Of a stretch of 64,000 nucleotides of DNA, positions 1,573 to 29,197 are shown in pieces; position 1 is the first letter of the stretch; each line of letters starts with the position of its first letter. The DNA is from an uncultured Actinomycetota bacterium. Its GTDB lineage: Bacteria > Actinomycetota > Actinomycetes > JAFAQI01. The stretch is taken from assembly GCA_963789615.1 (NCBI GenBank), contig CAWBLI010000005.1, positions 1,693,427-1,757,426 on the forward strand, written 5' to 3'. Below the pieces are notes generated by a model. That model searched no databases, had not been told where the DNA came from, and saw only the letters and a program-made list of their open reading frames with translations. A program made the position numbers and the translations under genes.

Positions 1573-1637
1573 TGCGCTCCGATCCCGAGAAGGTCTGCCG
1601 ACCGTACCTCCTGAGCGAGTTCTTCGGTACGACGACG

Positions 1638-5560: not shown

Positions 5561-5593
5561 CGCGCCATCATGACGTGCGCCGACCTCACAGAA

Positions 5594-5614
5594 AAGGTCT
5601 TGGCACTAGACCTT
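5594..5614. promoter_or_regulatory. candidate GntR-type operator palindrome AAGGTCT-N7-AGACCTT
   Basis: Perfect 7-bp inverted repeat in the 143-bp divergent intergenic region between the FAD-GcvT operon (start 5560) and the kinase gene. The core GGTCT..AGACC fits the generic GntR t.GT-N-AC.a architecture. Confidence 0.35.
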
Positions 5615-5703
5615 GAACGGATTCGGCCCTACGATTCGCCCACCCCGAGGGCGAGAGCCCGTCGACGCGCCGTCGCGGGCTCACACGGAAGCAGGGAGGG
5701 CGT

Positions 5704-6666: not shown

Positions 6667-6690
6667 CAACGATCACAAGGGGGACGACCA

Positions 6691-11509: not shown

Positions 11510-11825
11510 GATGAGTCTCCTGGCGACGGCGTTGTCGGCACTGAGCACTTGGGCAGCCTCTACCCGCCAGCGAGGGAGATCACTCGCTTTTTCCGGTACA
11601 GCGGTTGGAGTGGGTCAACCGGGCCGGTGACTTCAGGGAACTTCCCCGATTCCCCGACCCCCGCGGACAGGTTGCCGACCCGGTCGACCAACTGATCCTA
11701 CGAAGATCGCTGCGGCGAACTCCCGCCAGGGCAGGCACCGTACGTGAACGGTTGATCACACAACCGGGCGTTGATCGCATCCGGACACCGGCCGACCGCC
11801 GCCAGCCGGCTGAGGACTGACGACC

Positions 11826-13369
11826 TCAGCCGTCGGCGGGCGGCGAAACTGCTCGGCCGGCTGCCCCGAAGGCCGCCAACTCGCCTGGCGACGTGGTGAG
11901 CTCGGTGTCGCAGCTACCCGTACTGTCGTCCCATTCGACCATTGCCCTGATGTTCGGGTGGCTGGTCAGAACCGACGGGATCTGGGAGTACCAGTCCGCC
12001 TGGGCGCTGGGAGAACTGGGTCGGAAACCGTGCCGTACTCCGGCAAGATGAACGGCTTGTCGCCGAATCCGTTGGCCTCCAGCCACTGGTACGCCGGGTC
12101 GATGGTCTGGTCGAAGTCCTTCCAGCCCTCGCTGTGGCAGGACGCGAAGTTGTAGGGGTCGTAGCCGACCCAATCGACATAAGAGCTGCCCGGGTACAGA
12201 GACTGGAACTCCGAGTCATGCCCGAGATAGCCCGTGATCGTCCACACCCAGATCACGTTGGTGACACCGAGCGTGGCGAAGACGTCATGGATATGCCGGT
12301 ACGCCGCGACGTAGTCGGCCGGTTGACCTGACGTCCCAACCCTGGTGTCCATCTCGTGGTCGAAGCTGAGCATTACCGGCTTGCCATAGGCCTTGAGGTA
12401 CTCCGCCTCCGGGTCGATCACCGACGCGTCGTACTTTCCTGCTGCGATGTCCGACCACTGGAGGTGGGTGCCCGCAGAGAAGATCCTCGACGCCCAGTCC
12501 TCGAGCAGGATGTGGCCGGAGGCAGCGAGCTGCTCGTCGGCGCTGTCCGGAAACAGCCCTCCCGAGAAGTCGCGGTAGCGGTAGACGATGCCGAACTGAC
12601 CATTACTGGCGGCCTCGAGGTTGGTCACCACGCTGGACCAGTCCTCCGAGTCGCCCGGATGTTTGTACGCCCCCCACCACACACCGCAGGACGACACCAA
12701 CATCGCCGAGACGGTGCACCCGGAGGTCGGCGTGGCCGTCGGAGTCGGCGTGGACGTGGGCGTAGGGGCGGACGTGCTGGCCGCTACAGGCACAACGCTC
12801 ACGTCATCGATCCGGTAGAAGCTCGGATCGTTGCGGATGCTGAACGTCAATGTCGCCGTCGTCGACGCGCCCGCCGGCACATCGAAGTCGCCACTGTACT
12901 GGCCATACCTGTCACCGATGGTCGTCCCGTCATCGGTGAAGACGGTCTGCTGGCTGCCGCCGGTCCCCGCCGGCCCGCTGACCGTCACGAGGAAGGACTC
13001 GCCGGCCGCACCAGGATCAAGGTTCTCGGACGCGAACGACACCTCGTAGGTCTCGCCAGGGCTCACCGGAAGCACCTGGCTCAGCAGGTCCGGGCCGCTG
13101 ACCGAGCCATCGTCGTATTCGTAGGTCCCGCTGTGGGGTGCGTCGTCGCCCACGACGCCGCTGCCCGATGTCGCTTGACCCGAGTCATGGGTCCATCCCG
13201 ACAGATCCCCGGATTCGAAGCCGCAGTTGGCCACGACATTGCCGGTGATCACCGCGCAGCCGGACGCTGCGGCGGTCGCCGTCGAGCCTTGCCACACCGC
13301 CGTCACACCGGCGCCGGCAACAACAGCCGCGGTCGTCACGGCAGCTAGAAGCCTTGCCTTGCGCGCCAT
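11826..13369 (-). pseudogene. secreted CBM-containing glycoside hydrolase, GH26 (beta-mannanase)-like, one frame break as assembled
   Basis: Signal peptide, then a jelly-roll CBM (NCGFESGDLSGWT), a P/T-rich linker (APTPTSTPTPTATPTSG), and a catalytic domain with the GH26-like acid/base segment LSFDHEMD and nucleophile segment FILPEYG. The C-terminus continues in ORF 11826..12173 (AQADWYSQIPSVL..). The break is at ~12015-12030. Confidence 0.6.
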
Positions 13370-13676
13370 CGCTACCCCCGTGAGTCACTGCATCGGGATC
13401 GAGTGCCTGACCTCCGAACGTATGGAATCGACGGCGAGGCGAGCGGGAGATCGCGCAACTTGGTCACAACGAGCCACGACGCCCACCCAAGACCCCTCCG
13501 ACCGGGCCAGGGATGTGGGCCTTACCGACCGTCGAGCGCCGTTCGCACCAGTTGACCGCACGGCTGGGCCGCCTCAAGCAGCCACTGAAATCGACGCCGT
13601 GTGAGGATCGTGGGGTGGTCTTCGGCCGGGGTCGTCGCACTCTCGGCTTAGCGACCGGACGATCACAGATGTCGGC

Positions 13677-15245
13677 GTGTGTTGCGTGATCGGCCGTCGG
13701 GTTCTCGTCCTCACGTGGTTGTCTGCGCTCGCGGGCCTCTTCGCGTTCACGATCGCCCCCGCTGTGCCCGTCGCTGCCGTGTCGCGGTCCGACCGTCCGA
13801 CCAACATCCATCTGCTTGCTGCAACGTCCGCATCGTTAACGGTGAGTTTCCGGCCGACCCCAGGGGCTCGGCGGTACCGGCTCGTGGTGTCACCGGTGAA
13901 GAGCGACTTGTTCACCCGCAACATCGACCGGCCCGGCAAGCACGCCAGATCCGTGACCGCCGACAAGCCCCGGCTCCGGATCCGGGGGCTGCGCTACACG
14001 ACTAAGCCCTACTACTACCGGGTGGCGACCATCCAGGCTCACAACGACACTTGGTCACGTCACTATCGGACGGCGTACCTGCGGCCGCCTGCACCCACCT
14101 CGCTGCAGCCAGTCTCGAACTCGAGCGGTACCTATCTCAGCTGGCACAGCGTCGCGGTGACCGGAGCGGTGATCGAGCAGGCTACCGACAGCGCGTTCAC
14201 TCAAGCCGTGCGCTTCTACCGCACGCGCAGTCCTGCCCGGCGGTTCACGCCCTACGACTTGGTCCCCGGCACGACGTACTACTTCCGGGTCCGCGCGGTG
14301 AACTCCGACGTCACCTCACCGCCCTCGGAATCGACAGCGACGACAGCAACAACGAACGAGAGCTTCGTGACGGTCGTGTCCTACAACTCGCTGGACGCCA
14401 GCTTCGACGGAGAGGAGCACCCCGGTGGAAAGGGCGCGCCTTTCGCGCAGCGGCGAGCCGAACAGCTGGCACTGCTCAGGAGAAGCAACGCCGCGATCAT
14501 CGGCATCCAGGAGGGCAACTCCTGCCTCGAGGAGATCCCGCATCAGCCGTGCTACCGCCAGATCGACTCACTGGCCGCCGGATTGCGGGCACGCTACGTG
14601 CTGGCTGACACGGACGCCAGTGCGACCGGCGCAAATCGCTACGCGGGCAACTACATTCTCTACGACCCCGACGTCGTCGAGCCGGTCGGCACCGGCGGCC
14701 ATTTCACCCTCGACCATGATCTGACTGTGCCCTTGCACCACGGCGGAGGTGGCAGATACGCCGCCTACCAGGTCTTCCGTGTCGACCAGACGGGCGCGAC
14801 CGTGCTGTTCGTCTCCACCCACCTGGCCTCACCGCGCGGGCACAAGTGGAACGTGGTGCGCGGTGATGAAACGCGAAACATGATCCACCAGGCGACGGCG
14901 TATGCCACGACCATGGGCGTCGGTCCGATCGTCTACACAGGCGACTTCAACTCCTACCCGCACGAGTTCGCGACGATTGACGAGCCCGGCAACGCGATGC
15001 GCGCCGCCGGTTATCTCGACGGGATCCAGGTCGCCCAGACCCTGATCAACGCCCAGTACGACAGCATCAACGGGCTATACCGAACCCCACCACGACATCA
15101 CGGGAGCGCAGACCACGTCTTCGTGTCACCCGGGGTGGGCGTCCAGTCCTGGCAGGAACTGTTACACCTGTCGAAAGGAAAGTTCGTCGGGACGATCCCC
15201 TCCGACCACAACCCAGTCGTCTCCGGTATCGACATCCCGTATTAG
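13677..15245 (+). CDS. secreted fibronectin type III repeat protein with C-terminal endonuclease/exonuclease/phosphatase (EEP) domain
   Basis: Signal peptide, then two FN3-like modules (LTVSFRPTPGARRYRLVVSP; YYFRVRAVNS), then an EEP domain (VVSYNSL.., IIGIQEGNS, FVSTHL, GDFNS, SDHNPVVSGIDI). Confidence 0.7.
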   Translation: MCCVIGRRVLVLTWLSALAGLFAFTIAPAVPVAAVSRSDRPTNIHLLAATSASLTVSFRPTPGARRYRLVVSPVKSDLFTRNIDRPGKHARSVTADKPRLRIRGLRYTTKPYYYRVATIQAHNDTWSRHYRTAYLRPPAPTSLQPVSNSSGTYLSWHSVAVTGAVIEQATDSAFTQAVRFYRTRSPARRFTPYDLVPGTTYYFRVRAVNSDVTSPPSESTATTATTNESFVTVVSYNSLDASFDGEEHPGGKGAPFAQRRAEQLALLRRSNAAIIGIQEGNSCLEEIPHQPCYRQIDSLAAGLRARYVLADTDASATGANRYAGNYILYDPDVVEPVGTGGHFTLDHDLTVPLHHGGGGRYAAYQVFRVDQTGATVLFVSTHLASPRGHKWNVVRGDETRNMIHQATAYATTMGVGPIVYTGDFNSYPHEFATIDEPGNAMRAAGYLDGIQVAQTLINAQYDSINGLYRTPPRHHGSADHVFVSPGVGVQSWQELLHLSKGKFVGTIPSDHNPVVSGIDIPY

Positions 15246-15287
15246 GCGAGCGCCCTGACCCGCTGAGATATCAGGCAGGCTGACGCC

Positions 15288-15736
15288 ATGACGACCACAC
15301 TGATCACTGGCGCCACCGGGGGCTGGGACGGGAGACGGCGCGCCGCCTCGTCGCCGCCGGGCACACCGTCTACCTCGGCGCGCGAGACCCAAACCGGGGC
15401 GCCGCGGCCGCGGCCGAGATCGGCGCTCACCCGGTCACGCTCGATGTCACCGACCAGTGATCGGTCGACGCCGCAGTCACGTTCCTTCGATCCGAGGTCG
15501 ACTCGCTCGACGTCCTGGTTAACAATGCCGGCATCGCCGGCGACCAGCTACCACCTGCGGCAGCGTCAATCGAGGACCTGCAACAGGTATTCGCCACCAA
15601 CGTGGTCGGCGCAACCCGAGTGCTCAAAGCTCTGACGCCGTTGCTCGATGCGAGCGGCTCACCCGTTGTCGTTCAGGTCAGCAGCGCCGTCGGGTCGTTG
15701 GCCCGCAACAGCGCTCCCGAGGCTCGTTGCCTCTGA
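15288..15736 (+). pseudogene. short-chain dehydrogenase/reductase remnant (frameshift, in-frame stop, 3' truncation)
   Basis: MTTTLITGATGG, then a frame break in a G-run at ~15321-15325. The shifted frame reads LGRETARRLVAAGHTVYLGARDPNRGAAAAAEIGAHPVTLDVTDQ-TGA(15458)-SVDAAV..LDVLVNNAGI..VVQVSS... It ends before the YxxxK motif, where the convergent phosphoesterase gene terminates. Confidence 0.7.
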
Positions 15737-15761
15737 AACCAGACGCTGCCCGGCTCACCAC

Positions 15762-17379
15762 TCAGCGCTGATGCATTGACCGATTCGCCACCGTCAGCAC
15801 GACGTTGCGGTCGCGAGCCGATCCGGCCGACGTACCGTCCACCCCTACCCGGTCCCGGACCTGCCAGCCGTTCGCCGCTAGCTCGCGGGACAGCCCGGCG
15901 AGCGCCAATGGGTCGAAGCGGCCCTCCCAGGCCAGCGCGCCGAGCGAGTCCAGCACCGTGGTGACCACGACGTAGTGCCCGTCGACCTCGAGCAGCTCGA
16001 CGATCCGGGACTGCTGCGGCCAGTCGATGTGCGAGGCGGTCGTGACCTGCACCAGCCCGACCGAGCCGTCGGGGCGGTGGATGGGCGATACCCGGTGGGC
16101 GTGGGTGTGGCCGTTGAGCCAGAGGACCACGTTCCGGTGCTCGACGATGCAGCGCGTGCAGCTCGCTGGCCAGCACCCGGGCTGGCTCGCCCGCCGCGTT
16201 GCGGTCGTTGAGCAGGGTCTCGAGCGGGTGGTGGCTCAGCAGAACCACCGGACGCTCGGCCGCCGCGGTGAGCTCGGCCCGCAGCCACTCCAGCTGCGGC
16301 CGGTCCAGCGACCCGTGCCAGCCGCCGTGCTCGTTGACGGTGTCGAGGACCACGATGCGGGCCGGGCCCTGGTCGAAGCCGTAGTACGCCGTGCCGTCGG
16401 CGGCGTTGGTGTCGGTGTAGCCGTGCCCGTGCGGCTCGCCACCACGGGACCGGTGCATCCGGACGTGCTCGGCGCGGGTGACGGCAGCCCGGCCCGGGTC
16501 CGGGTCGATGTCGCGGTAGACCGAGCCGACCAGCAGCTCGAGCGACTGCGGGTCGCAGTCGGCGAAGCCGCGGAATGCCCTGACGATGTCGAGCTCCGGC
16601 GCCGGGCTCACCGCCTTGCGGGCGCTGGTGTGGCTGTCGGTCCACGGGGCCAGTGACGGCACGGTCCCCTGCATCAGCAGGTCGTGGTTGCCGTGGACGG
16701 CGAGCCACGGGACGGCCAGCCCGGTCGACAGGAACGGCTCGCGCACCATGTCCAGCAATCCCGGTACCTCGGGGAAGCCGTAGCGGCGGCGCGCGAGGTC
16801 TTCGGGGCCGCCTTCCGGATGCCAGTACCGGGTGTCGTCGACGTCCGGCGATGCGACCCCGTCGTACCGGGTGAGGTCGCCGGAGTCCGGGACGATCAGC
16901 GACGAGCCGTCGAGCAGGTCGAGGTAGGCCTCGAGCTCGTTGCACTGCGCGTTGTCGGTCGAGTCGCCGGTGACGACGGCGAGGTCGACGGGGGCGCCGG
17001 AGACCGGGCCGCGCGGCTCGGCGTTGACGGCCAGCACCATCGCCTCGACGACGTGATGGGTGAACAGCTCCTGCGGCCGGTAGGTCCCGACGATCCCCAG
17101 CTCCCAGCGGAACGGCGACTCGAGGTCGACGAACCGGTCGAGCAGCTCCATCCGGGCGGGTGACTGGTGGTCGGTGACGTGCAGGTCGGACAGGTGCGCG
17201 ACGACCAGCACCGGTCGGGCCCGGTGGCGCCAGTCCTCCGGCAGTGCCGGGGCACCGGTCTCGCGGCGGACCTGGTGCGGTTCGCCGGGTGCCCAGACCA
17301 GCTGCCGGTAGCCGCCCGGCCCCGGCTCCCCGGGAGCGATCCGCCGTCCCGCCGTACTCACCGTGCCAGCCCCCCACAT
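15762..17379 (-). pseudogene. TIGR03767-type metallophosphoesterase, one frame break as assembled
   Basis: Calcineurin-like motifs ([35 protein letters not shown], then in ORF 15762..16130 [10 protein letters not shown]). The break is at ~16143-16150 (..ASELHAL / [14 protein letters not shown]..). The start lies 15 nt downstream of the etfA stop on the same strand. It is a paralog of 48899..50563. Confidence 0.8.
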
Positions 17380-17394
17380 GCATGGCGTGGGTCG

Positions 17395-18372
17395 CTAGTC
17401 GGGGAGGGCACGAAGCGCCTTAACAACGGCAGGCAGAACCTCGTGGAGATCTCCGATCACGGCGTAGTCCGCCGAACGCATGATGGGCGCGTCCGGGTCG
17501 GTGTTGACGGCGAGCAGGTGTTTGGCGCTCTTGCAGCCCGCCATGTGCTGGATCGCGCCGCTGATGCCGCAGGCGAGGTACAGCTCGGGGGCGATCCGGG
17601 TGCCGGTCTGGCCGACCTGGTCGCGGTGTGGCCGCCAGCCCAGGCTGGTCACCACCCGGGAGCCTCCGACGGTTCCGCCGAGCAGCGCGGCGAGCTCCTC
17701 GAGTACGGCGAACTCCTCGGCCCCGCCCACGCCACGACCGCCACCGACGACGACGCGGGCGTCGCTCAGCGAGATCGACCCGGCCTCGCGCGGCACCGTG
17801 CTGACGACCTGGCCGACCAGGTCCGCCGGCTCCAGCGACGGGCTGTGGTGATGCACGGCGACGTCGGCCGGCGTATCCACGGTCGTCGCCGGCACCAGCT
17901 GCGGCGCGACGGCGAGCAGCGCGCGCGGCGCCGAGAGAACGGCCTCCTCGAGCAGGCTGCCCGCCCACCGGATCCGGGTCAGCTCGAGCCCGCCGTCGCC
18001 GAGGGTCGCGGTGAGGCAGCCCGCTGCCATCGGCAGATCCGACAACGCCGCGAGATGAGCCAGCACGTCGTGCCCACGATCCGAGCCCGGCGCGACGACG
18101 GCGGAGGCGTCGAGTGAGTCGGCGACCTGCCGGGTCGCCTGCGCCCACGCCCGGGCAGCGAAGCCGTCCAGCTGGTGGTCGACGACGACGTGAAGATCGG
18201 TCACCCCGTGCATCGCGAGCCGCGACCCGACCTCGGGATCGGGTTCGCCGACCACGACAGCAGCGAGCCTGCCGTCGCCCTGCTCGGCCAGCGACCGCGC
18301 GAACGTCAATGCCTGCAACGACAATCCCGGCACCGCCGGGCCTTCGTGCTCGACCAGACACAGGACGCTCAT
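17395..18372 (-). CDS. etfA: electron transfer flavoprotein subunit alpha
   Basis: The true start MSVLCLVEHE overlaps the etfB stop (ATGA). The C-terminal FAD-binding signature is PELYLACGISGAIQHMAGCKSAKHLLAVNTDPDAPI. The track ORF extends spuriously upstream. Confidence 0.9.
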   Translation of the reverse strand: MSVLCLVEHEGPAVPGLSLQALTFARSLAEQGDGRLAAVVVGEPDPEVGSRLAMHGVTDLHVVVDHQLDGFAARAWAQATRQVADSLDASAVVAPGSDRGHDVLAHLAALSDLPMAAGCLTATLGDGGLELTRIRWAGSLLEEAVLSAPRALLAVAPQLVPATTVDTPADVAVHHHSPSLEPADLVGQVVSTVPREAGSISLSDARVVVGGGRGVGGAEEFAVLEELAALLGGTVGGSRVVTSLGWRPHRDQVGQTGTRIAPELYLACGISGAIQHMAGCKSAKHLLAVNTDPDAPIMRSADYAVIGDLHEVLPAVVKALRALPD

Positions 18373-19139
18373 GAGCCCACCAGCCCCAGCTTCTGCAGCA
18401 CCTCGACGACGCGCGGGGCCGCGTCGGCTCCGGTGCCCAGGACCTCGGTGGTACGCCGTACCCCTTCGGGCACCCGCAGCCGGCGGACCGAGAGACCGTC
18501 CGCACCGGCCACCGGCTCGCGCCGGTCGACCTGCGCCTTCTTCGCCTTGATCCGGCCCGGCAGCGACGGGTAGCGCGGCAGGTTGATCCCCTCGCGGACG
18601 CTGACGACGCACGGCAGCGGCAGCCGGTAGGTCTCGACCGCGCCGGCGTACTCCCGGGTGGCGAGGACGCCGTCGCCGTCAACGGTCAGCGACTTGACGC
18701 CGGTCGCGACCGGTACGCCGAGGGCGTGCGCCACCCGGATCGGCACCTGGTAGTCGCCGGTGTCGGCGGCCTCGTTGCCGAACAGCATCAGGTCGAAGCC
18801 ACGACCGGCCTCCTGCTCGGCCTGGATCGCGGCAGTGATCGCCTCGGCGGTGGCCTGCGGGCCCCACTCCTCGCCGCCGGTCGCCAGCAGGACGGCTTCC
18901 TTCATGCCGATCGAGATCGCGTCACGCAGCTGCTCGACCGCTTCGTCGGGGCCGAGGGTCAGCACCACCGAACGGCCGGGGTGCGCGCTTGTGATCCGGA
19001 CCGCCTCCTCGACCGCGCACTCCTCGTGCGGGCTGACCGTGAAACCGAGGTAGCGGGTATCGATCCCGAGCTCGTCCTCGGTCAGGCTCAGGGTCGCCCC
19101 TGGCATCGGCACCCGCTTGACGCAGACCAGCACATCCAC
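18369..19139 (-). CDS. etfB: electron transfer flavoprotein subunit beta
   Basis: GTG start giving (M)DVLVCVKRVP.., typical of the EtfB N-terminus. It also shows LLFGNEAADTGDYQVPIRVAHALGVP. It begins 5 nt after the stop of the upstream FAD-GcvT gene. Confidence 0.9.
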   Translation of the reverse strand: MDVLVCVKRVPMPGATLSLTEDELGIDTRYLGFTVSPHEECAVEEAVRITSAHPGRSVVLTLGPDEAVEQLRDAISIGMKEAVLLATGGEEWGPQATAEAITAAIQAEQEAGRGFDLMLFGNEAADTGDYQVPIRVAHALGVPVATGVKSLTVDGDGVLATREYAGAVETYRLPLPCVVSVREGINLPRYPSLPGRIKAKKAQVDRREPVAGADGLSVRRLRVPEGVRRTTEVLGTGADAAPRVVEVLQKLGLVGS

Positions 19140-19144
19140 CTCGG

Positions 19145-21667
19145 TCAGCCCCGCAGCCGGGTGTTGTCGGGGTCGAAGTACGGCCGCGAGCCGGCGACCA
19201 CAACGGTCACCGGATAGGTCTCGCCGAGGTAGCTCACCTGCAGCTGGTTGCCCTCCACCGCGTGCTCCGGCGGCAGGTAGGACATCAGCAGGTGCTTCCC
19301 GACCGACGGGCCGGACCCCGCACTCGTGACGTACGACGGCCGGCCGAGCGCGTCGACCAGCCGCTCGCCGGCCTGGTCGAGAATCGCCTCGCCGCCGATC
19401 ATGTAGCGGGCCGGGTCGGCAGCGTGGTCGAGAGCCCGGTGGTCGAGGGTCAGCGTGCACAGCAGCGCGGCCGGGGGCTCGTCGCGCTGCTTCAGATAGG
19501 CCTCGCGACCGACGAAGTCCGCGTCCTTGACCTTGGGCCGGGTCATACCGGCCTCGACCAGGTCGTACTCGGACCCCAGCTCGTCGCCGTAGGACCGGTA
19601 GCCCTTCTCGATCCGCGCGGTCGTCGCGTAGACGCCGATCCCGACCGGCACGATGCCCATCGGCGTACCGGCCTCCCAGAGCAGGTCCCACGCCCGGGAG
19701 CCGGTCTCGATCGGGACGTGCAGCTCCCAGCCGAGCTCGCCGACGTAGGAGATCCGCGACGCCAGGACCGGTACGCCGGCGAGGTCGATCGTGCGGGCGG
19801 TGCCGAAGCCGAAGGCGTCGTTGCTCACGGCGTCCTCGGTCAGCCCGGCGACCAGGTCGCGGGCGCGCGGCCCCCACACGCCGATCGTGGTCCAGCCGGA
19901 TGTCACGTCCATGAACTGCACGCTGCCGTCGGACGGCAGGTTCCGCTGGAACCACGCCTTGTCCAAGCCGCCGGTCGCGCCGCCGGTGACGATCCGGTAG
20001 TACTCCCGGCCGAGCCGCATGATCGTGAGGTCGGCCTTGATCCCACCGGTCGGCGTCAGCAGCGACGTGTAGATGACCCGGCCGATCGGCACGTCGACCT
20101 GCGAGACGGCGAGCCGCTGCAGGTAGTCGACGACGCCCGGCCCCTGGACATCGAACGAGCAGAACGCCGAGAGGTCGACCAGGCCGACCCGGTCACGCAG
20201 CGCCAGGTGCTCGGCGTTGATGATCGGTGACCAGTTCTTCGACTCCCAGGTGTCGCCGCGGTCCATCAGCCGACCGGCGTACTCGTCGAGCAGGGAGGAG
20301 TTGGACTCGTAGTACAACGGCCGTTCCCAGCCGCCACCCTCGATGAACAGCGCGCCGAGCCCGACTTCCTGGGGGTGCATCGGGGCCAGCCGCACGTTGC
20401 GCGCGGAGTACGCCTGCTCTTTCGGGTGCACGATCGCGTAGGTGTCGGAGAAGTGCTCGAAGGCCCGCTGCCGGACGTAGGAGCGGGTCCGCTGGTGCGG
20501 GTGGAAGCGCGCGATGTCGGCGGTGTGCGCGTCGATCTCCGACGTACCGGTGGTCATCCACTCGGCGACGGTCCGTGCGATCCCCGGGCCTTCCTTGATC
20601 CAGCTCGCGGCCACCGACCACAGGCCACGGACCTCGGGCGTCTCACCGAGCGCCGGCATGCCGTCGGGGGTCAGCGAGATCAGGCCGTTGATCGCGTAGC
20701 GGACACCGACCGACTCGTCGCCGAGGATGTCGGGCATCAGCTCGAGCGCGTCCTCCATCTGCGGGTCGAAGTCCTCGGCGGTGAACGGCAGCTCGGTCGG
20801 CGAGAGGGTCGCGGCCTCGTTGGAGGGGATGTCGTCGGCCTCGATGAGGATCGGCCGGTGCGCGTAGGAGCCGACCTCGAGGTCGCCGCCGTGCTGCCGC
20901 TCGTACATCTGGGTGTCGACGTCGCGGATGATCGGGTACTCGATCTCGCCCTTGGAGTCGGCGAACAGCGGCACCGGACCGACGCTGATCATCTGGTGCA
21001 CCACTGGCATCAGCGGGATCGTGGCGCCGGCCATCCGTGCGATCCGCGGGCTCCAGACCCCGCAGCAGATCGCGACGGTGTCGGTCGCGATCGTGCCGGC
21101 AGAGGTCTGTACGCCGATGACCCGGCCGTCATCGACGTCGATGCCGAGCACCTCGGTGTTGGCGAGGACGCTGAGCGCACCCGCCTCGATCGCGTTGTCG
21201 CGCATGATGGTCCCGGCCCGCAGCGAGTCGACGACCCCCGCCTCGGGGTAGTGGATGCCGCCGATGATGACGTCGTCGTCGAGGTAGGGCACCAGGTTCT
21301 TGACGTCCTTGGGCGAGAGCAGCTCGGCGGTGAGACCCCACACCTTGGCGGCGCTGCGCCGGCGTCCCAGCTCCTGCATCCGGGCCTCGGAGCGGGCGAC
21401 CTCGATGCCACCGCTCTCGGTGAACAGCCCCAGCTCCTTGTACTGCCGCATGCTGTCGAGGGTGAAGCGCTCCATCATCACGGAGTACTCGACCGGGAAG
21501 ATGAAGTTCGACGCGTGGCCGGTCGAGCCGCCCGGGTTCGGCAGCGGGCCCTTGTCGACCATCACCATGTCGCGCCAGCCGAGCTTGGCCAGATGGTGCA
21601 CCAGCCCGTTGCCGACGATGCCCGCTCCGATGACGACGACGCTCGCCGTCGTGGGGGTCTGGCTCAT
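19145..21667 (-). CDS. dimethylglycine oxidase/dehydrogenase-like FAD oxidoreductase fused to GcvT folate-binding domain
   Basis: 840 aa from [29 protein letters not shown] domain plus GcvT domain ([29 protein letters not shown]). Its ATG overlaps the betA stop (ATGA). The upstream 575 aa of track ORF 19145..23392 are an out-of-frame read-through of betA. Confidence 0.85.
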
Positions 21668-23340
21668 CTGTCGGGCTCCGATCTGGTGGCGGTTTGCAGG
21701 GCGTGTCGGTAGAACGGGGTCGGCTCGGGCGGGAGCGGCGGTCGACCGACGATGATGTCCGCGGCCTTCTCGGCGAGCATCATCACCGGCGCGTAGATGT
21801 TGCCGTTGGTGACGTACGGCATCACCGAGGCGTCGACGACCCGCAGCCCGTCGGTGCCGTGCACCCGCATCGTCGCGGGATCGACCACCGACATCGGTCC
21901 GGTGCCCATCGCGCAGGTGCAGGACGGGTGCAGCGCGGTCTCCCCGTCGCGGGCGACCCAGTCGAGGACCTCGGCATCGGTCGAGACCGACGGCCCGGGC
22001 GAGATCTCGCCGCCGCTGAACGGCTTCAGCGCGGGCTGCTCGAGGATGCTGCGCGCGACCCGGATCGCCTCGACCCACTCGCGGCGGTCCTGCTCGGTCG
22101 ACAGGTAGTTGAACTGGAGCGCCGGATGCACGGTCGGGTCGGTCGTCGTGATCTTCACGGAGCCGCGCGAGTCGGAGTACATCGGCCCGATGTGGACCTG
22201 GTAGCCGTGGTCGGAGGCGGGCGCGCTGCCGTCGTACCGCACCGCGATCGGCAGGAAGTGGAACATCAGGTTGGGGTAGGCGACCTCGTCGTTGCTGCGG
22301 GCGAAGCCGCCGGCCTCGAAGTGGTTGCTCGCGCCGGGGCCGCTGCGCAGGAACAGCCACTTCGCACCGATCCACGGCCGGTGCCGGTTCTTCAGCAACG
22401 GGTTGAGCGAGACGGGCTGGGTTGCGGCGTACTGGACGTAGACCTCGAGGTGGTCCTGCAGGTTCTCGCCGACCCCGGGCAGGTCGAGGATGCATTTCAC
22501 GCCGACGGCTCGCAGCTCGTCGGCGTTGCCGATGCCGGACAGCTGGAGCAGCTGCGGGGAGTTGAAGGCGCCGCCGCACAGGATGACCTCGTCGGCCCGC
22601 GCGGTCACCGGTGCACCGCGACCGTGCGAGTACTCGACCCCGACCGCAGTCGTGCCGTCCATCACGACCCGGCGCACCAGGCTGCGGGTCTTGACCGTGA
22701 GGTTCGGTCGCGACATCGCGGGGTGCAGGTAGGCGCGCGCCGCCGACCAACGGCGGCCCCGGTTGATGTTGCGATCGAAACGCGCGAAGCCCTCCTGCCG
22801 GTAGCCGTTGACGTCGTCGGTGAGCTGGTAGCCGGCCTGCTGGACCGCGCCGAGGAACGCCCCGAACAGCGGGTTGGTCGCCGGCCCGCGCTCGAGGATC
22901 AGGGGGCCGTCGCCGCCACGGAAGTCGTCGGCGCCGGCGCGGGTGGTCTCCATCTTCTTGAAGTAGGGCAGGCAGTGGGCGTAGTCCCAGTCGGCCATGC
23001 CGGGGTCGGCGGCCCAGCGTTCGTAGTCCAGCGGGTTGCCGCGCTGGAAGATCATGCCGTTGATGCTGCTCGACCCGCCCAGCACCTTGCCCCGGGCGTG
23101 GTAGATCCGGCGGCCGTTCATGTACGGCTCGGGCTCGGACTCGTACTTCCAGTCGTAGAACCGGTTGCCGATCGGCATCGTGAGTGCCGCGGGCATGTGG
23201 ATGAGCGGGTCCCAGAGCGAGTCGGGCCGGCCGGCCTCGAGCACCAGTACGGTCACCGCAGGGTCGGCGGAGAGCCGGTTGGCCAGCGCACTGCCGGCCG
23301 ACCCGCCGCCCACGATGACGACGTCGTAGTGCTCGCTCAT
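21664..23340 (-). CDS. betA: GMC family oxidoreductase, choline dehydrogenase
   Basis: 558 aa from [27 protein letters not shown] signatures present ([18 protein letters not shown]; HPSCTCAMG; [10 protein letters not shown]). RBS GGAGAG. It is co-linear with the DMG-oxidase-like gene and etfBA. Confidence 0.85.
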
Positions 23341-23360
23341 TGGCTCTCCACTGCAGTTGC

Positions 23361-23385
23361 GTATCGCGAAACTCGCGCGCGATAC
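23361..23385. promoter_or_regulatory. candidate IclR operator palindrome GTATCGCG-N9-CGCGATAC
   Basis: Perfect 8-bp inverted repeat in the 156-bp divergent betA/IclR intergenic region. A related half-site pair occurs next to the second IclR gene (56258..56276). Confidence 0.35.
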
Positions 23386-23496
23386 GGAACAAGCATCGTG
23401 GTCGGCAGGACAGTGGTCAAGACGTCGGCGGGTTCTGGTCCACGGTGGGCCGGCCGAGTTGCTGCGGACATCTCGCAGAGTACGTACTGTTGCACC

Positions 23497-24318
23497 ATGA
23501 GCAACGGCCGATCGGGGCCTGACGGGGATGCGCCCACGGGGGTCGCGAAGCGCGCGCCCGGGTCGGTGCAGTCCGTCGACCGGGCGCTGCGGGTCCTCGA
23601 GATCCTCGCCGACCACGGCGCGCGAGGTGTCACCGAGATCGCCGATGAGCTCGGCGTCCACAAGTCGACGGCGTTCCGGCTGATCTCCGTGCTGGAGGAT
23701 CACCAGCTGGTCGAGCAGGTCGAGGACCGCGGCCGCTACCACCTCGGTTTCGGGATCGTCCGGCTCGCGGGCGCCACCTCGGCGCAGCTTGACCTCACCC
23801 GGCAGAGCCAGCCGGTCTGCGAGGACCTGGCGAGCGCGCTCGACGAGACGGTCAACATCGCGGTGCTCGAAGGGTCATCGGTCATCAACATCAGCCAGGC
23901 CCGTGGCGGTGCCGCGATCGCGAGCCACAACTGGGTGGGCCAGCTCACTCCCCCGCACGCCACGTCGAGCGGCAAAGTGCTGCTGGCGGCGCTGAGCGAT
24001 GCCCAGGTGTCGGCGCTGCTCCCCGACCCGCTGCGCCGCTTCACCGACGCGACGCTGACCTCGCGCACCAAGCTCCGGCAGGCGCTGCGCGAGGTGCGGG
24101 CAGAGGGGTACGGCGTGACCGAGGGCGAGCTCGAGGTCGGGCTCAACGCGGTCGCCGCGCCGGTGCACGGACCGGACGGCGAGATCATCGCGGCGCTGTC
24201 GGTGTCGGGTCCGACGTACCGGATGTCGAGTGACCTGCTCCCGGAGATCGCCAAGAGCGCCGTCGCGGCCGCGGACGAGATCAGCCGACGGCTGGGCTAC
24301 CGCGCTCCGCTGGGTTGA
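23497..24318 (+). CDS. IclR family transcriptional regulator
   Basis: 273 aa from [10 protein letters not shown]. wHTH ([42 protein letters not shown]) plus an IclR effector domain ([20 protein letters not shown]). Only the last third of track ORF 21694..24318 is real. Confidence 0.9.
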
Positions 24319-25088
24319 TACTGACCGTCGTGCCTACCGATCCGAGCAACGTCCGCGACCAAGCCACTGCTGCGATCGACACGGCCCGCGAGCGCGGCAT
24401 CCCGTTGCGGTTGCTCGGCGGCATGGCGGTGCAGGTCCTGACCCCGGACTTCCCGCCCCGGACCCGGGACGACCAGGACATGGACTTCGCCTCCACCGAC
24501 CGCGACAAGTCGGGGCTGCTCTCGCTGTTCGACGACCTGGGGTACGTCGGTGACAAGCGCTTCAACACGCTGCACGGTCACCGGCAGATGTACTTCCGGA
24601 CGCCGGACGGGACCCGTGCCGTCGACGTCATCATGAACAAGCTGATGATGTGCCACGAGCTGGTCTTCAAGGACCGGATCGACCGGATGCCCTACACCCT
24701 CGACGTCACCGACCTGCTGCTCACCAAGCTCCAGGTCGTCGAGCAGAACGAGAAGGACGTGCACGACGTCTGCTACCTGCTCGCCGCGTTCCCGGTTGCT
24801 GCGGGCGACGAGCCCGGGCAGATCGGCGAGGCTCGGGTTGCCGACGTACTCGGCTCCGACTGGGGCTGGTGGCGCACCGTCACCGGCAACCTCGAGCGGG
24901 TGGCGGAGCTGCTGTCGACGACGCTGTCCGGCCTGGTGCCGGCCGGTGCGCCGTACGACCCGGTGGTGCAGGCCCGGTCGTTACGGCAGTACGCCGACGA
25001 CTGCTCGAAGTCGATGAAGTGGAAGGTGCGCGCCAAGGTCGGCGACCGCAGCCGCTGGTACGAGCTCCCCGAAGAAGTCGCCCACTAA
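24315..25088 (+). CDS. hypothetical protein, nucleotidyltransferase-fold (AbiEii/DUF1814-like motifs)
   Basis: 257 aa. LRLLGGMAVQ (GG[ST]A-type motif), DQDMDF (DxD) and LLLTKLQVVEQNEKDVHDVCYLL (K..x..KD.xD.xxL) resemble the three NTase motifs of AbiEii-type proteins. The TTG start overlaps the IclR stop. High GC3 supports coding. Confidence 0.45.
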   Translation: MILTVVPTDPSNVRDQATAAIDTARERGIPLRLLGGMAVQVLTPDFPPRTRDDQDMDFASTDRDKSGLLSLFDDLGYVGDKRFNTLHGHRQMYFRTPDGTRAVDVIMNKLMMCHELVFKDRIDRMPYTLDVTDLLLTKLQVVEQNEKDVHDVCYLLAAFPVAAGDEPGQIGEARVADVLGSDWGWWRTVTGNLERVAELLSTTLSGLVPAGAPYDPVVQARSLRQYADDCSKSMKWKVRAKVGDRSRWYELPEEVAH

Positions 25089-25153
25089 CCCACCACCACG
25101 CATGGCCCATTGATGGGGCTAGGGGACCACCAATGGGCCATGCGTGTGGTGGG
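25089..25153. repeat. hairpin repeat family 1, copy A (CACGCATGGCCCATYGRTGG core)
   Basis: CCCACCACCACGCATGGCCCATTGATGG-ggctagggga-CCACCAATGGGCCATGCGTGTGGTGGG lies between convergent stops (25088 +, 25154 -). It is near-identical in its core to 38605..38656. Confidence 0.7.
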
Positions 25154-26802
25154 TCACTCCACGGGGATTTCGCCGTAGACCATCTTGAGGTCGATGCCCT
25201 GCGACTTGCGGACCAGCTTCGCGCCGACGTACAACACGATCGCCAGCCCGTACATACAGCCCATGAAGATCAACGACGTGTGGTTGTTGACGCCGTACGT
25301 CGAGTTGGTCAGCCACTTCTCGATGTTCCAACCCAGGAAGATGGCGGCGAGGGCCGACGTGATCGTGAGCACCGGTACTCCGGCGACCTGGTACTTGGCG
25401 ATCGGGGAGTTCTGGTAGAGCTCCCGCTTCCGCCAGGGCAGGATCATCGCCGCGATGAGGGTGCCGAAGAACGTGACCGCGATGACCAGCGCCGCATCGA
25501 GGATGAACTTCTTGAACTCGGACGTGTAGGCGTAGAGCCCACTGACCACGAGCGACGGGGCCAGCATCAAGACCATGCCCCAGATCGGTACGTGCCGCTT
25601 CTCCGACACGTACGACGCGCGCTCCGGCAGGATCCGGTCGAACGCGGCGGCGAAGATCACCCGGGTCGAGGACAGGAACAGCGTGCCGGCCCAGCCGAGG
25701 AACCAGGTCGCGAACAGCAGGATGAACACGACCTTGAGGAACGTGGTCGGGATGATCATCGACACCAGCAGCGGCGGGAACGCCCACACCGGGATCGGCG
25801 ATGTCCCGTAGCCCCAGTACGTCGCGTTGGACGCGTTGAAGAACTGCCAGCCGAAGGTGCGCTCCGCGAGGAACAGGAAGACGATCGCGATGAGCACCGT
25901 GACCCACAGGCCGCTCATCATGCCGCGCAGCACGCCGCGGAAGTCGCTCGCGCCGCGGACCTCGCCGTACAGCGTGGCTCCCCAGTTCGGGTAGAGGATC
26001 CAGAAGCACAGGAGCGGGACCAGCAGCGCCGTCTGCGCCGAACAGCGACGAGAACCCGAGGTGCTTCGCGGAGTCGAAACCGCCCTTATGAGCCGCGGCG
26101 ATGGTGTTGGCGTAGGTGTTGCCCGTCGTACCGAACAGGTGGTGGGTCGAGGAGTTGTAGTGCGACACGAAGCTGCCCCGCGACGTGAACAGCATGATGA
26201 CGAACATCAGCAGCAGCACCACGCCACCGAGGTAGAAGCAGACTCGCTGGACCTTCGCGTAGCCCTCCATCCCCAGCGCGACGAGCGCGCCGGCGAGGAT
26301 GGTCGTCGCGACGCAGACGACGAAGATGCCGGTGTCCGACGCCAGCCAGGTCAGCGTCCCGCCGGCCTTGAGCAGGGCCGCCAACGGCTGCAGCACCTCG
26401 ACGTTGAGGATGTTCGCGTAGACCGGCGTCCAGTACCAGAGGATGAACCACCAGCCGGTGACGGCGAGCACGAACCCGATGCCCGGGCTCAACACCCGGC
26501 TCTGCCAGACGTAGTCACCACCGGCGCGCGGCATCACCGAGATCAGGCCGGCGTAGGAGAAGACCAGGAACGACACGAAGATCGCCGCCACGATCAGCGC
26601 GGGCAGCACCTGGCCGGTCGCGAAGAACGGCAGCGCGGAGAAGCTGAAGAACAAACCCAAGCGTGACGAAGTTGACCGACATGTAGGAGTAGACGAACGC
26701 ATCGAGCCGCGACCACCCCTTGACCAAGCCGGTGGCGTTGCGCAGGAACAGGTCCGGTGCCCCGGTGGATCCGGCCGATGTCGGGGGAACTGTGGTGGCC
26801 AC
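25154..26802 (-). pseudogene. APC family amino acid/amine permease, two frame breaks as assembled
   Basis: Three frames read continuously as a permease: MATTVPPTS..SYMSVNFVT, then LGLFFSFSALPFFATGQ..AKHLGFSSLFGA, then QTALLVPLLCFWILYPNWG..GEIPVE. The breaks are at ~26655 (extra t in a ttt run) and ~26033. Confidence 0.8.
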
Positions 26803-26839
26803 GCTGACCTCCTGGTCGGTGCTTGACCGTCAGCGGCGG

Positions 26840-27797
26840 TTAGCCGTTGACGAGGACGTAGTTCTTGACCTTGGCCTTCTTCAAGTCCAGGGTCACCAGC
26901 GCTCCCTGCAGCACGCCTTCTTCATACGCACTGCCGGGATTGAGAGCCAGCGTGCGGCCGATCCGGACCGCCGCCCGGCTCTCGTGGATGTGCCCGTGCA
27001 GCCCGAGCAGCGGCTGCACGTCCTGGATCGCCGCGCGGATCGAGGTCGACCCGACCGGCCGCATCGCCTGGCCGCCGGCCAGGATGTTCATGTCCGCGTC
27101 GAGGGCGGGGGCCTGGTCGAGACCACTGCCGTATGGCGGGGCGTGGAAGTTGAAGATCATGCGGGTCGGGTCCTTGACCTTCGAGACGATCTCGTCGACC
27201 CGTTTGCCGAGCTCATCCTCCGGCAGCTCGCGGAAGGTGTTCCACGGGGTCGGGATTGGTCCAGCCGAGCGACACCATCTCGAATCCCTCGAGGTCCATC
27301 GGGTCGTCGCCGTTGGTCTCGACCACGCGGCCCTGCTGGTTCAGCAGGGGGTCGAGCTCGAACATGTCGTCGTTCGCCGGGCAGACGACGACGCGATGCA
27401 CCTTGTCCCGGAGCTTGTCGTCCGCCATCTGCAGCCAGCGTTCGGTCTCGTCGAGCATGACCTTCGTGAAGCGCGCGTCCTTGAGGGAGTCGTCGGCGCG
27501 CATGCCGTCGTACTCGTCCTCGGACATCCGCACCGGGTAGTAGCCCCGGTTGCGGATCTTCGCCTCCACGTCGACGACCTCGGCCTCGGTCTCGAGGACG
27601 GTGTGCCGCTCGAACATCACGGTGTCCCAGCGACCGTTGCGCTCGACGACCGGCACCATGGCCTTGCCCGTGATGTCACCACCGACGATGACGACGTCCG
27701 CTTTGTAGAACGCCCCGGCGTTGAGGAACTTGCGCCAGCAGATCTCGGAGCCGTGAATGTCGGTGACGTAGAAGATCGTCAGGGAGTTCTTCGACAC
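26840..27797 (-). pseudogene. metallophosphoesterase family protein, one frame break as assembled
   Basis: GTG start at 27797 with RBS GGGGAGG. FYVTDIHGS and VVIVGGDITGK motifs, then, after the break at ~27243 (extra c in GWTNP-ccc-), PWNTFRELPEDELGKRVDEIV..MIFNFHAPPYG..GLHGHIHES. Confidence 0.75.
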
Positions 27798-28006
27798 GGC
27801 GCACCTCCCCGGCCAACCGCACGGTTGCGTCCTGCGCAACTGGCGTCGCATGACGCGAGGGGAGAATCGCACCAGGCTCATGGCCTGTCAACGGCCAGCG
27901 CCAACCCGCGACGCCGGTTCGCCGCCGCTTGACAGCAGCGGTTCCGGCGGACACTGTTGCGCATGATGGCACGAGTCGCCCTCCACGCAACGCGATAGGC
28001 GTCACA

Positions 28007-29197
28007 ATGGAGCGACCGAGCCAGGCCGACCGAGGGATGACCAGGATGACCGCTACCGCAGGCGACGCGACGACCAGCGCGCTTCCGGACAGCCTGCTGC
28101 CGACGATGCCCGGCCACTACTACAACGACCCCGCCATCTTCGCCCTGGAGCAGGCCAAGATCTTCGAGGCGATGTGGTTCTGCGCCGTACGCAGTTCCGA
28201 CCTCATCGAAGCGGGCGAGTTCCGCACCGTGCAGGTCGGCCGCGAGTCGATCCTCGTGGTCCGCGGCTCCGACGGCGAGCTGCGTGGCTTCTTCAACGTC
28301 TGCCGGCATCGTGGCGCGCGGCTCTGCATCGAGCCGGAGGGCAAGGTACGACGGTCGATCCAGTGCACGTACCACGCCTGGACCTACGCGCTGGACGGGA
28401 AGCTCGTCGCGGCACCCAACCTCACCTCGATGCCAGACGTCGACCGGATCGGCTTCGGCCTGGTGCCGGTCCACCTCCGCGAGTGGCTCGGGTATGCCTG
28501 GGTCTGCCTCGCCGACGAGCCGCCGTCGTTCGAGGAGCAGGTCATCGGCGCGTGCACCGAGCGGCTCGGCGACCCGGCCGCGATCGACCACTACAAGATC
28601 GACTCGCTGGCGGTCGGCAAGCGGATCAGGTACGACGTGGCCGCGAACTGGAAGCTCATCATCGAGAACTTCATGGAGTGCTACCACTGCGCGACGATCC
28701 ACCCGGAGCTCACCGAGGTGCTGCCGGAGTTCGCGAACGGTTTCGCGGCGCAGTACTACGTCGGTCACGGCGCGGCGTTCGGGCCGGAGATCAAGGGCTT
28801 CACGGTCGACGGCAGTGAAGGCTTCGAGCGGATCGACGGCGTCACCGAGGAACAGGACCGCAAGTACTACGCGATCACGGTGCGGCCACAGGTGTTCATC
28901 AACCTGATCCCCGACCACGTGATCATCCACCGAATGTTCCCGATGGCCGTCGACCGCACGGTCATCGAGTGCGACTGGCTGTTCGCCCCCGACCTGCTCG
29001 CGGCGAATCCCGACCTGACCCGATCGGTCGAGCTGTTCGACCGGGTGAACCGGCAGGACTTCGACGCCTGCGAGCGGTGCCAGCCCGGGACCACGTCACG
29101 GCTCTACGCGAACGGCGGCGTGCTGGTGCCCGCCGAGCATCACATCGCCGGACTCGGCGAGTGGATCCACGACGTCCTGGGAGATGCTCTCGACTGA
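28007..29197 (+). CDS. Rieske [2Fe-2S] ring-hydroxylating-oxygenase alpha-subunit family protein (candidate glycine betaine/quaternary-amine N-demethylating monooxygenase)
   Basis: Rieske motif [17 protein letters not shown] and a mononuclear-iron region [15 protein letters not shown]. The start is uncertain (ATG 28007, 28037 or 28046; GAGGG lies 9 nt before 28046). The stop overlaps the sdaA start (TGATG). Confidence 0.8.

Follow-up and report, generated by a model that had tools for sequence, protein, structure and literature searches.

The 64,000-nt stretch of DNA analysed here (the window) comes from an uncultured Actinomycetota bacterium, has a high GC content of about 69% and carries, on its minus strand, a row of five genes that ends in a gene for a metallophosphoesterase, here called MPE1. 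Judged by its best matches the DNA is actinobacterial and probably lies close to Mycobacteriales or Jatrophihabitans. Frame analysis and translation of the open reading frames gave the order betA, FAD-GcvT, etfB, etfA, MPE1. The first gene, betA (21664..23340), encodes a choline dehydrogenase that scores 827 bits on TIGR01810, against an equivalog cutoff of 732. It is followed by a gene for an 840-aa FAD-GcvT fusion dehydrogenase of the dimethylglycine/sarcosine dehydrogenase type (19145..21667, matched by the NCBIfam soxA and GcvT models), by etfB (18369..19139), which encodes the beta subunit of an electron-transfer flavoprotein (ETF), and by etfA (17395..18372), which encodes the alpha subunit and matches NCBIfam EtfA-type models, its orthologues matching Pfam ETF and ETF_alpha. 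Orthologues of the fusion protein show the domain architecture DAO, FAO_M, GCV_T and GCV_T_C, and their genes are likewise followed by etfB and etfA. Judged by domain architecture and gene order, the FAD-GcvT protein and EtfBA fit a dimethylglycine/sarcosine dehydrogenase with a dedicated ETF. The MPE1 gene (15762..17379) comes last. The junctions are tight: the FAD-GcvT ATG overlaps the betA stop in an ATGA, 5 nt separate the FAD-GcvT stop from the GTG start of etfB, etfB and etfA again share an ATGA, and 15 nt lie between the etfA stop and the MPE1 ATG. The preliminary description of this DNA had read the same order and the same junctions. An in-frame GTG at 17361, which the orthologues use and which has a GGGGGG run 10-15 nt upstream, is likely the true MPE1 start and would leave a 33-nt spacer after the etfA stop. 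The five genes are presumably co-transcribed.

A gene for an IclR-family regulator (23497..24318, plus strand, with NCBIfam IclR-type matches) diverges from betA, and its position relative to betA is kept in the related contigs L003, L090, L091 and L093. Upstream of betA lies an inverted repeat with 13-nt arms (23356..23390; GTTCCGTATCGCGCGC.AGTTTCGCGATACGCAAC), a candidate IclR operator, and further upstream a TTGACC box resembling a -35 element. Palindrome and box are both conserved in the window, L003, L091 and L093, that is, in four lineages and down to 67% etfA identity, so that one regulated promoter upstream of betA probably serves the whole operon. A promoter and terminator scan of 15000..24500 returned nothing above chance, and Rfam gave zero matches over the whole window.

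In this record the MPE1 frame is interrupted at ~16149 (discussed below). The frameshift-corrected product has 538 aa and scores 381.4 bits on TIGR03767, where the curated NCBIfam cutoff is 330.75 bits, aligning to model positions 1-494 of 496; its earlier assignment as a TIGR03767-type protein encoded at the end of the operon was thus borne out once the frame was restored. Membership of the calcineurin-like metallophosphoesterase superfamily (PF00149) is defined by the motifs DxH, GDxxDN, GNH[DE], H and GHxH together with an alpha/beta sandwich fold. MPE1 has all five motifs (D65/H67, G138-D139..N143, G230-N231-H232, H383/H384 and G423-H424-H426) as well as the fold, and is a member of this superfamily; PF00149 itself matches the orthologue P0001 at 35.4 bits. 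Only metallophosphoesterase models matched, and there is no homology to PF04185 or to the HAD-type PchP. The AlphaFold 2 model of the 95%-identical orthologue encoded on contig L001 has a predicted local distance difference test score (pLDDT) of 94. In this model residues 1-25 form confidently folded beta strands and no hydrophobic signal is present; the folded N-terminus indicates that the MPE1 clade has no signal peptide, and the model places MPE1 in the cytoplasm. Typical TIGR03767 members carry an N-terminal twin-arginine (TAT) signal. In the family at large (432 clusters at 50% identity, E <= 1e-30), many other representatives do have TAT-like signals together with long C-terminal extensions, whereas MPE1 and a related clade linked to importer genes have neither.

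We then searched for structural and functional relatives. Every Foldseek match to the model had the metallophosphoesterase fold, and only the catalytic core was shared (TM-score 0.3-0.44 over the query). The nearest solved folds were Lmo2642, SMPDL3B, GpdQ, an ADPRibase-Mn-like phosphatase, acid sphingomyelinase, Rv0805 and purple acid phosphatases; the majority are phosphodiesterases, several with phosphocholine diester substrates. A sequence search of the PDB with the family profile found remote metallophosphoesterase matches only. As the preliminary description had stated, no substrate has been assigned to TIGR03767 (PPA1498): our literature search found none, mentions being confined to two secretome papers and one genome paper, and it found no mention of a metallophosphoesterase in phosphonate gene clusters. 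A tblastn search of plasmids with an MPE1 orthologue returned only distant copies (33-35%) in Streptomyces, Streptantibioticus and Tsukamurella. Exact-sequence searches with the FAD-GcvT protein, MPE2 (a second TIGR03767 protein of the window, see below) and BetA gave no match.

Homologues of MPE1 at 78-95% identity were exclusively metagenomic, and their genes lay after etfA wherever the contig was long enough. The order FAD-GcvT, etfB, etfA, MPE, with betA where the contig reaches it, was found in five lineages (the window with L002; L001; L003, L004 and L005; L088; L094), and the three contigs of the third lineage show the full series IclR, betA, FAD-GcvT, etfB, etfA, MPE. Because the same arrangement recurs in the independent metagenome contigs L001, L003/L004, L088 and L094, the operon goes beyond chance. 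The spacer between etfA and the MPE gene measures 3-33 nt in four of the five lineages, with 3 nt in L088. In L001 about 100 nt of tandem repeats of ~36 nt (ATGGCCCATTGGTGTTGCCATAGCC...; L001:1824-1925) lie between the two genes and are not found in the window; the 229-nt gap at this place in L094 may resemble that insert. The genes downstream of the MPE gene vary among lineages and include a 700-aa protein, an ABC exporter and an ArsP permease. Since the linkage is kept while the downstream genes differ, the linkage itself appears to be the retained feature. In the window the downstream neighbour is an insertion of ~4.2 kb (11557..15776), located between MPE1 and the next shared gene, present in L002 and absent from L001. 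It encodes a secreted protein with one Pfam fn3 match and an endonuclease/exonuclease/phosphatase (EEP) domain (13677..15245), and a further coding region (11966..13384) that we take to be possibly a glycosyl hydrolase.

Walking outward from etfA led to other lineages in which the slot after this gene is filled differently. Contigs L090, L091 and L092 of a sister lineage (etfA 82% identical) carry, in order, a Rieske gene, a gene for a further metallophosphoesterase (MPE3, described below), a permease gene, a gene for a 257-aa protein, IclR, betA, FAD-GcvT, etfB and etfA. The next gene encodes a 531-aa PF04185 phosphoesterase with a TAT signal (L091:10474-12069; phospholipase C/acid phosphatase, PLC/AcpA family; 85.7 bits), and after it comes a gene for a secreted YVTN beta-propeller protein. 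That phosphoesterases of two unrelated kinds occupy this one position of the operon argues for the usefulness of a phosphoester-cleaving activity there, and the replacement supports, without proving, choline release from phosphoesters as the role of MPE1. In L093 (etfA 67%) a ProV/OpuA-type betaine/choline transporter follows etfA; we considered this ABC transporter as the importer of the MPE family discussed next and rejected it on account of its type. In L095 (etfA 60%) nothing comparable was found after etfA.

To place MPE1 within its family, we scanned one genome per species and took the 80 best loci, at 44-62% identity to MPE1; importer counts refer to 78 genes in 77 loci. None of the 80 loci had etfA, etfB or the FAD-GcvT gene within 10 kb. 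The bet/etf linkage is specific to the MPE1 clade and is not a property of TIGR03767, so that the family-wide linkage raised in the preliminary description held in the five close lineages and failed in the distant ones. The context has already changed at 62% identity: in P0007/L089 and L060 the MPE gene overlaps or adjoins a gene for an ABC ATPase. In 52 of the 78 family genes, the MPE gene directly follows a same-strand gene for a PotA/PhnT2-like ABC ATPase, in 19 cases with a 4-nt overlap, and upstream of the ATPase gene lie two permease genes and a gene for an SBP_bac_6 binding protein. The ATPase best matches PhnT2, a putative 2-aminoethylphosphonate (AEP) transporter ATPase. The sole named matches of the binding protein are to PhnS, weak and far under the cutoffs, and a PDB search with it found 5T1P only, annotated as an ABC-transporter periplasmic substrate-binding protein. 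This pairing of importer and MPE recurs in metagenome-assembled genomes (MAGs) of Acidothermaceae, Jatrophihabitans, Mycobacteriales and Pseudonocardiales and, with the gene order reversed, in Modestobacter. Genes for a TIGR03351 phosphonatase-like hydrolase (30 of 77 loci) and a TIGR03364 FAD oxidoreductase (38 of 77) also occur nearby, usually convergent with the MPE gene, although relatedness inflates both counts: a good part of this adjacency stems from Streptosporangiaceae MAGs with conserved core synteny (trp genes and dnaE nearby). PbfD, a TIGR03364 member, oxidises N-methyl-AEP and AEP (PMC10590968).

In a neighbour-joining tree the bet-linked clade is monophyletic and nested among importer-linked sequences, with L060, P0007 and L007 as sisters. 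This nesting makes the bet-etf position the derived state and the importer context the ancestral one. Membership of MPE1 in the operon is thus real and conserved, yet clade-specific and derived. In the window, where MPE1 comes after etfA, the 64 kb contain no importer of this kind. We found no signature of a substrate switch between the bet-linked and importer-linked clades, as P0007 and P0069, both importer-linked, have the same residues near the motifs as the bet clade, and no recurring theme among the genes downstream of the MPE gene in diverse loci. Choline and amine genes nevertheless adjoin the importer-MPE operon in a few loci: betA (74%) and an aldehyde dehydrogenase gene diverge from it in L075, a GbcA-like Rieske gene (69%) lies immediately upstream of it in L076, and an amine cluster with glutamine-synthetase-like, PuuD-like and APC-permease genes lies directly downstream of it in L080. 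The preliminary description had named a lack of conserved linkage with choline genes as a sign against a choline role; such linkage exists in the five lineages, in the neighbours at L075 and L076 and, for a phosphoesterase of another family, in the slot of the sister lineage. As a separate observation, L013, L032, L050 and L067 have a pair of adjoining importer-MPE operons, of which one encodes an MPE1-like enzyme and the other, with a LacI-family regulator gene ahead of it, an MPE2-like enzyme.

MPE2 (48899..50563, plus strand) is the second TIGR03767 protein of the window, a distant paralog with an intact open reading frame and a score of 388.5 bits. It had been put forward as the intact paralog to express and assay; intact it is, but it shares only 39% identity with MPE1, and its motif I reads D-L-Q and departs from the canonical D-x-H. 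The closest representatives (P0156, P0161, P0168 and P0173) also have D-x-Q, and glutamine replaces the metal-ligand histidine across the entire MPE2 subfamily. MPE2 clusters with a second clade of paralogs, whose genes are likewise linked to importers and have a LacI-type regulator gene upstream of them. By its sequence it belongs to a different subfamily and would be a poor proxy for MPE1 in assays.

The third metallophosphoesterase, MPE3 (26840..27797, minus strand), is a Metallophos_3-like protein of ~315 aa with a 1-nt insertion at ~27255; an intact orthologue (L090:549-1511) is 85-92% identical. The preliminary description had correctly noted this gene and its divergence from the Rieske gene, but had missed the frameshift and given the gene a peripheral role, whereas MPE3 has the deepest bet/etf linkage of the three. 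Its family is separate and very conserved, with a length of ~313 aa and about 8000 homologues (E <= 1e-10). Downstream of MPE3 and co-directional with it is a gene for an APC-family permease (25154..26800, minus strand), reconstructed by three-frame translation and alignment to the intact L091 orthologue, followed by a plus-strand gene for a conserved 257-aa nucleotidyltransferase-like protein, hyp257 (24315..25088), whose homologues have an invariant G-G...D-x-D and, in 30 of 34 cases, weak matches to NTP_transf_5. On its other side MPE3 diverges from a GbcA-like Rieske oxygenase gene (27929..29197, plus strand; 216 bits on NF058607 GbcA, below cutoff), and L090 has a Rieske/Ring_hydroxyl_A gene in the same position.

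We counted the neighbours of MPE3 across 44 metagenome loci, each 6 kb or longer. The APC permease gene was adjacent in 41 and the gene for the 257-aa protein in 36; the less frequent neighbours were FAD-GcvT (21), aldehyde dehydrogenase (14), an IclR-family regulator (13), etfB (9), betA (9; 68-76% identical) and etfA (8). The module was located at 24315..27797 in the window and in L090, L091, L095, L097-L176, L086 and L087; in L095, MPE3 is co-directional with FAD-GcvT-etfBA. The trio of MPE3, permease and 257-aa protein also occurs on a plasmid of the haloarchaeon Halobellus, and MPE3 with the permease on a ~918-kb plasmid of Thermomicrobium roseum. MPE3 is thus a metallophosphoesterase with deep, cross-phylum linkage to FAD-GcvT, etf and betA. 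A PDB sequence search with MPE3 gave zero matches; the nearest solved structures, aq_1956 and TT1561, were both deposited without a functional name.

Further choline and amine genes lie elsewhere in the window. Both betC, a choline sulfatase gene (39457..40977, minus strand; 767 bits on TIGR03417 against a cutoff of 433), and a gene for an APH-fold kinase of the choline/ethanolamine-kinase family (5704..6666, plus strand; Pfam APH 89 bits, Choline_kinase 75 bits) are present as previously described. The kinase gene is part of a cluster at 214..8262 that also contains a glutamine-synthetase-like gene, a regulator, a PuuD-like amidohydrolase, a second, frameshifted FAD-GcvT gene and an APC permease; this cluster probably encodes a route in which an amino alcohol or an amine is gamma-glutamylated, and most of it recurs at L080:6117-12965, directly downstream of the importer-MPE operon. 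In L095 (GCA_037025125.1), a corrinoid methyltransferase set (B12-binding, Pterin_bind and a RACo-type activase) and FTHFS (L095:14276-20960) adjoin the MPE3-permease-FAD-GcvT-etfBA genes, a hint that methylated amines may be demethylated by a second route.

The best single explanation of these contexts, to which we give about even chances, is that MPE1 hydrolyses a choline-containing phosphoester. In this proposal the gene, which ancestrally closed an ABC importer operon of the PhnS/T/U/V-like type, moved in this actinobacterial lineage to the 3' end of the betA-FAD-GcvT-etfB-etfA operon, under IclR control. MPE1, as a dinuclear-metal phosphoesterase, would there cleave a choline-containing phosphoester inside the cell and so supply substrate: the freed choline would pass through BetA to betaine, and on by way of dimethylglycine to glycine along the route encoded around MPE1. 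Candidate substrates would be phosphocholine, glycerophosphocholine and CDP-choline. Several points weigh against this proposal. Our literature search found no biochemical data on any TIGR03767 member. The distant relatives lack the bet/etf linkage altogether, and the family context points to aminophosphonates (AEP, N-methyl-AEP) at least as much as to choline esters, while L075, L076 and L080 are few cases that were noticed after the fact. Owing to the repeat insert in L001, co-transcription is not guaranteed everywhere. The PF04185 protein of the sister lineage is secreted and MPE1 cytoplasmic, so the two would at best act at different steps, and the 84-nt gap before the PF04185 gene leaves room for a promoter of its own. 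Finally, should the sequence of this record be right, its copy of MPE1, cut before the GHxH motif, would be inactive.

The arrangement is of a known kind, in which a phosphoesterase is paired with either choline catabolism or an importer, here with families of no assigned function. Gene order in the importer-linked relatives matches the logic of the Escherichia coli ugpBAEC-ugpQ operon, in which import is followed by cytoplasmic hydrolysis and the phosphodiesterase gene comes at the end. UgpQ, however, has a GDPD fold, the importer of the MPE1 relatives is of the PotD/PhnS type (SBP_bac_6) and not of the UgpB type, and MPE1 of the window sits in a bet-etf operon. GpdQ of Enterobacter aerogenes, a glycerophosphodiesterase, has the calcineurin-like dimetal fold as well and was one of the best structural matches (3d03, E 1e-9), but only at ~12-13% identity and with a TM-score of 0.34 over the query, owing to the ~250 extra residues of MPE1. 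Near the top of the same search were acid sphingomyelinase, SMPDL3A/B and ADPRibase-Mn, a CDP-alcohol hydrolase (5jg8, 9k2e, 2nxf). Their substrates include the phosphocholine diesters sphingomyelin and CDP-choline. In these cases the superposition is limited to the core (TM-score over the query 0.32-0.37) and the sequence kinship to the motifs, and no saposin or C-terminal domains are held in common with MPE1. The secreted TIGR03767/PPA1498 proteins of Cutibacterium, Streptomyces and others align with MPE1 over its full length and share all the metal-binding motifs, differing in the TAT signals and C-terminal extensions that many of them carry. In Pseudomonas aeruginosa, GbdR induces the phospholipase C/sphingomyelinase PlcH and the phosphorylcholine phosphatase PchP along with the catabolism of choline, betaine and dimethylglycine (PMC3170909, PMC3572970). 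These phosphoesterases set free phosphocholine or choline, and the PF04185 enzyme in the slot of MPE1 in the sister lineage belongs to the PlcH family. The differences are that PlcH (PF04185) and PchP (a HAD enzyme) are secreted or periplasmic, whereas MPE1 is homologous to neither and is placed in the cytoplasm, and that MPE1 is coupled to choline catabolism by operon membership, the Pseudomonas enzymes by a shared activator.

Two other activities would account for part of the evidence. MPE1 could act on phosphonates, cleaving esters of AEP or N-methylated AEP after their import, for example the head-group esters of phosphonolipids; the freed aminophosphonate would go to an FAD oxidase and a phosphonatase-like hydrolase, and in the bet operon the carbon of N-methylated or trimethylated aminophosphonates would enter betaine metabolism. 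GpdQ, the structural relative of MPE1, does hydrolyse phosphonate monoesters, and the PhnT2-like importer ATPase, the TIGR03351 and TIGR03364 genes near the relatives of MPE1 and the reactions of PbfD all point in this direction. On the other hand, neither the window nor its close relatives have phosphonate genes beside MPE1, much of the TIGR03351 and TIGR03364 adjacency is owed to the one MAG family named above, and the PhnS matches fall far short of their cutoffs, so we consider a phosphonate substrate unlikely. MPE1 could also be a general phosphatase or phosphodiesterase that scavenges organophosphates, its position after etfA being a neutral rearrangement with no link to choline. An importer operon is a typical context for nutrient scavenging, the turnover of genes downstream of MPE would fit a neutral rearrangement, and secreted family members have been proposed as solubilisers of organic phosphorus (PMC9723661). 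Yet the junction with etfA stays short in most lineages and the linkage outlasts the downstream turnover, an unrelated phosphoesterase occupies the same slot in the sister lineage, and the operon has an IclR-type regulator with a conserved candidate operator, where no Pho-type context was seen. General scavenging is accordingly also improbable in our judgement, and we continue to favour a choline-containing phosphoester as the substrate.

A different alternative concerns this genome only: MPE1 could be a true, recently inactivated pseudogene and, with MPE3 and its permease inactivated too, the phosphoester branch would have been lost. The break at ~16149 is a 1-nt insertion (GCGCTG[C]ATCGTC) that separates motifs I-IV from GHxH, lies outside any homopolymer and leaves no uninterrupted frame in this record; its removal restores the full-length product. 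The MPE3 gene (~27255) and the permease gene (~26035 and ~26654) are broken as well, while betA through etfA are intact. The extra base in MPE1 is, however, absent from L001, L002, L003, L088 and L094, of which L002, matching the window at ~94% across 17 kb, probably represents the same or a closely related species. At least eight similar single-base breaks, that of MPE1 included, are spread over the 64 kb and also affect unrelated genes: the second FAD-GcvT gene (~4720, inside the DAO domain), an aldehyde dehydrogenase gene (~34575), an acyl-CoA dehydrogenase gene and a gene for an ADP-forming acyl-CoA synthetase, with 50541..53745 and ~55280 among the break sites; a ninth break likely affects a second acyl-CoA dehydrogenase gene. 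So many true breaks would be implausible in an actinobacterium that is free-living and has a rich catabolism. Every break of determinable direction is +1 (MPE1, MPE3, both permease sites, the second FAD-GcvT and the aldehyde dehydrogenase), as worked out by hand frame arithmetic alone, without a tool check, and for ~26654 by alignment. The breaks that could be compared with other contigs are private to this record, and the public contigs L002 and L090 are themselves rich in indels, their closely spaced accession numbers suggesting one project. Given the break density, the +1 bias and the indel-rich related contigs, the MPE1 frameshift is probably an assembly error, which we hold to be about four times likelier than true pseudogenisation; the latter is rather unlikely. 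The preliminary description had only implied that MPE1 was broken, and the frame shift it implied is there, though it is probably not a sign of gene decay. Programmed frameshifting was also considered and rejected, as all orthologues are encoded in a single frame and the site has no slippery run.

A wider and more doubtful idea, which we would put forward only tentatively, is that the TIGR03767 clade and the unrelated MPE3 family are both integral to a widespread system for the catabolism of choline and N-methylamines. If so, they would mark a so far overlooked branch by which phosphoesters, or else a phospho- or nucleotidyl-linked intermediate, enter this system, in parallel to the aminophosphonate route found near the TIGR03767 clade elsewhere.

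Two practical corrections follow for work on this locus: MPE2 is the wrong surrogate for MPE1, and a pseudogene label would be premature given the likely assembly error. The TIGR03767 and MPE3 families are large and conserved and have no known substrate, and the contexts described here narrow the candidates to phosphoesters of choline or ethanolamine and to aminophosphonate esters. If the proposed role of MPE1 is true, head groups of membrane lipids, in the form of phosphatidylcholine breakdown products or of phosphonolipids, could pass directly into the one-carbon and glycine metabolism of soil actinobacteria, and Gram-positive bacteria would have their own counterpart of the Pseudomonas PlcH/PchP system.

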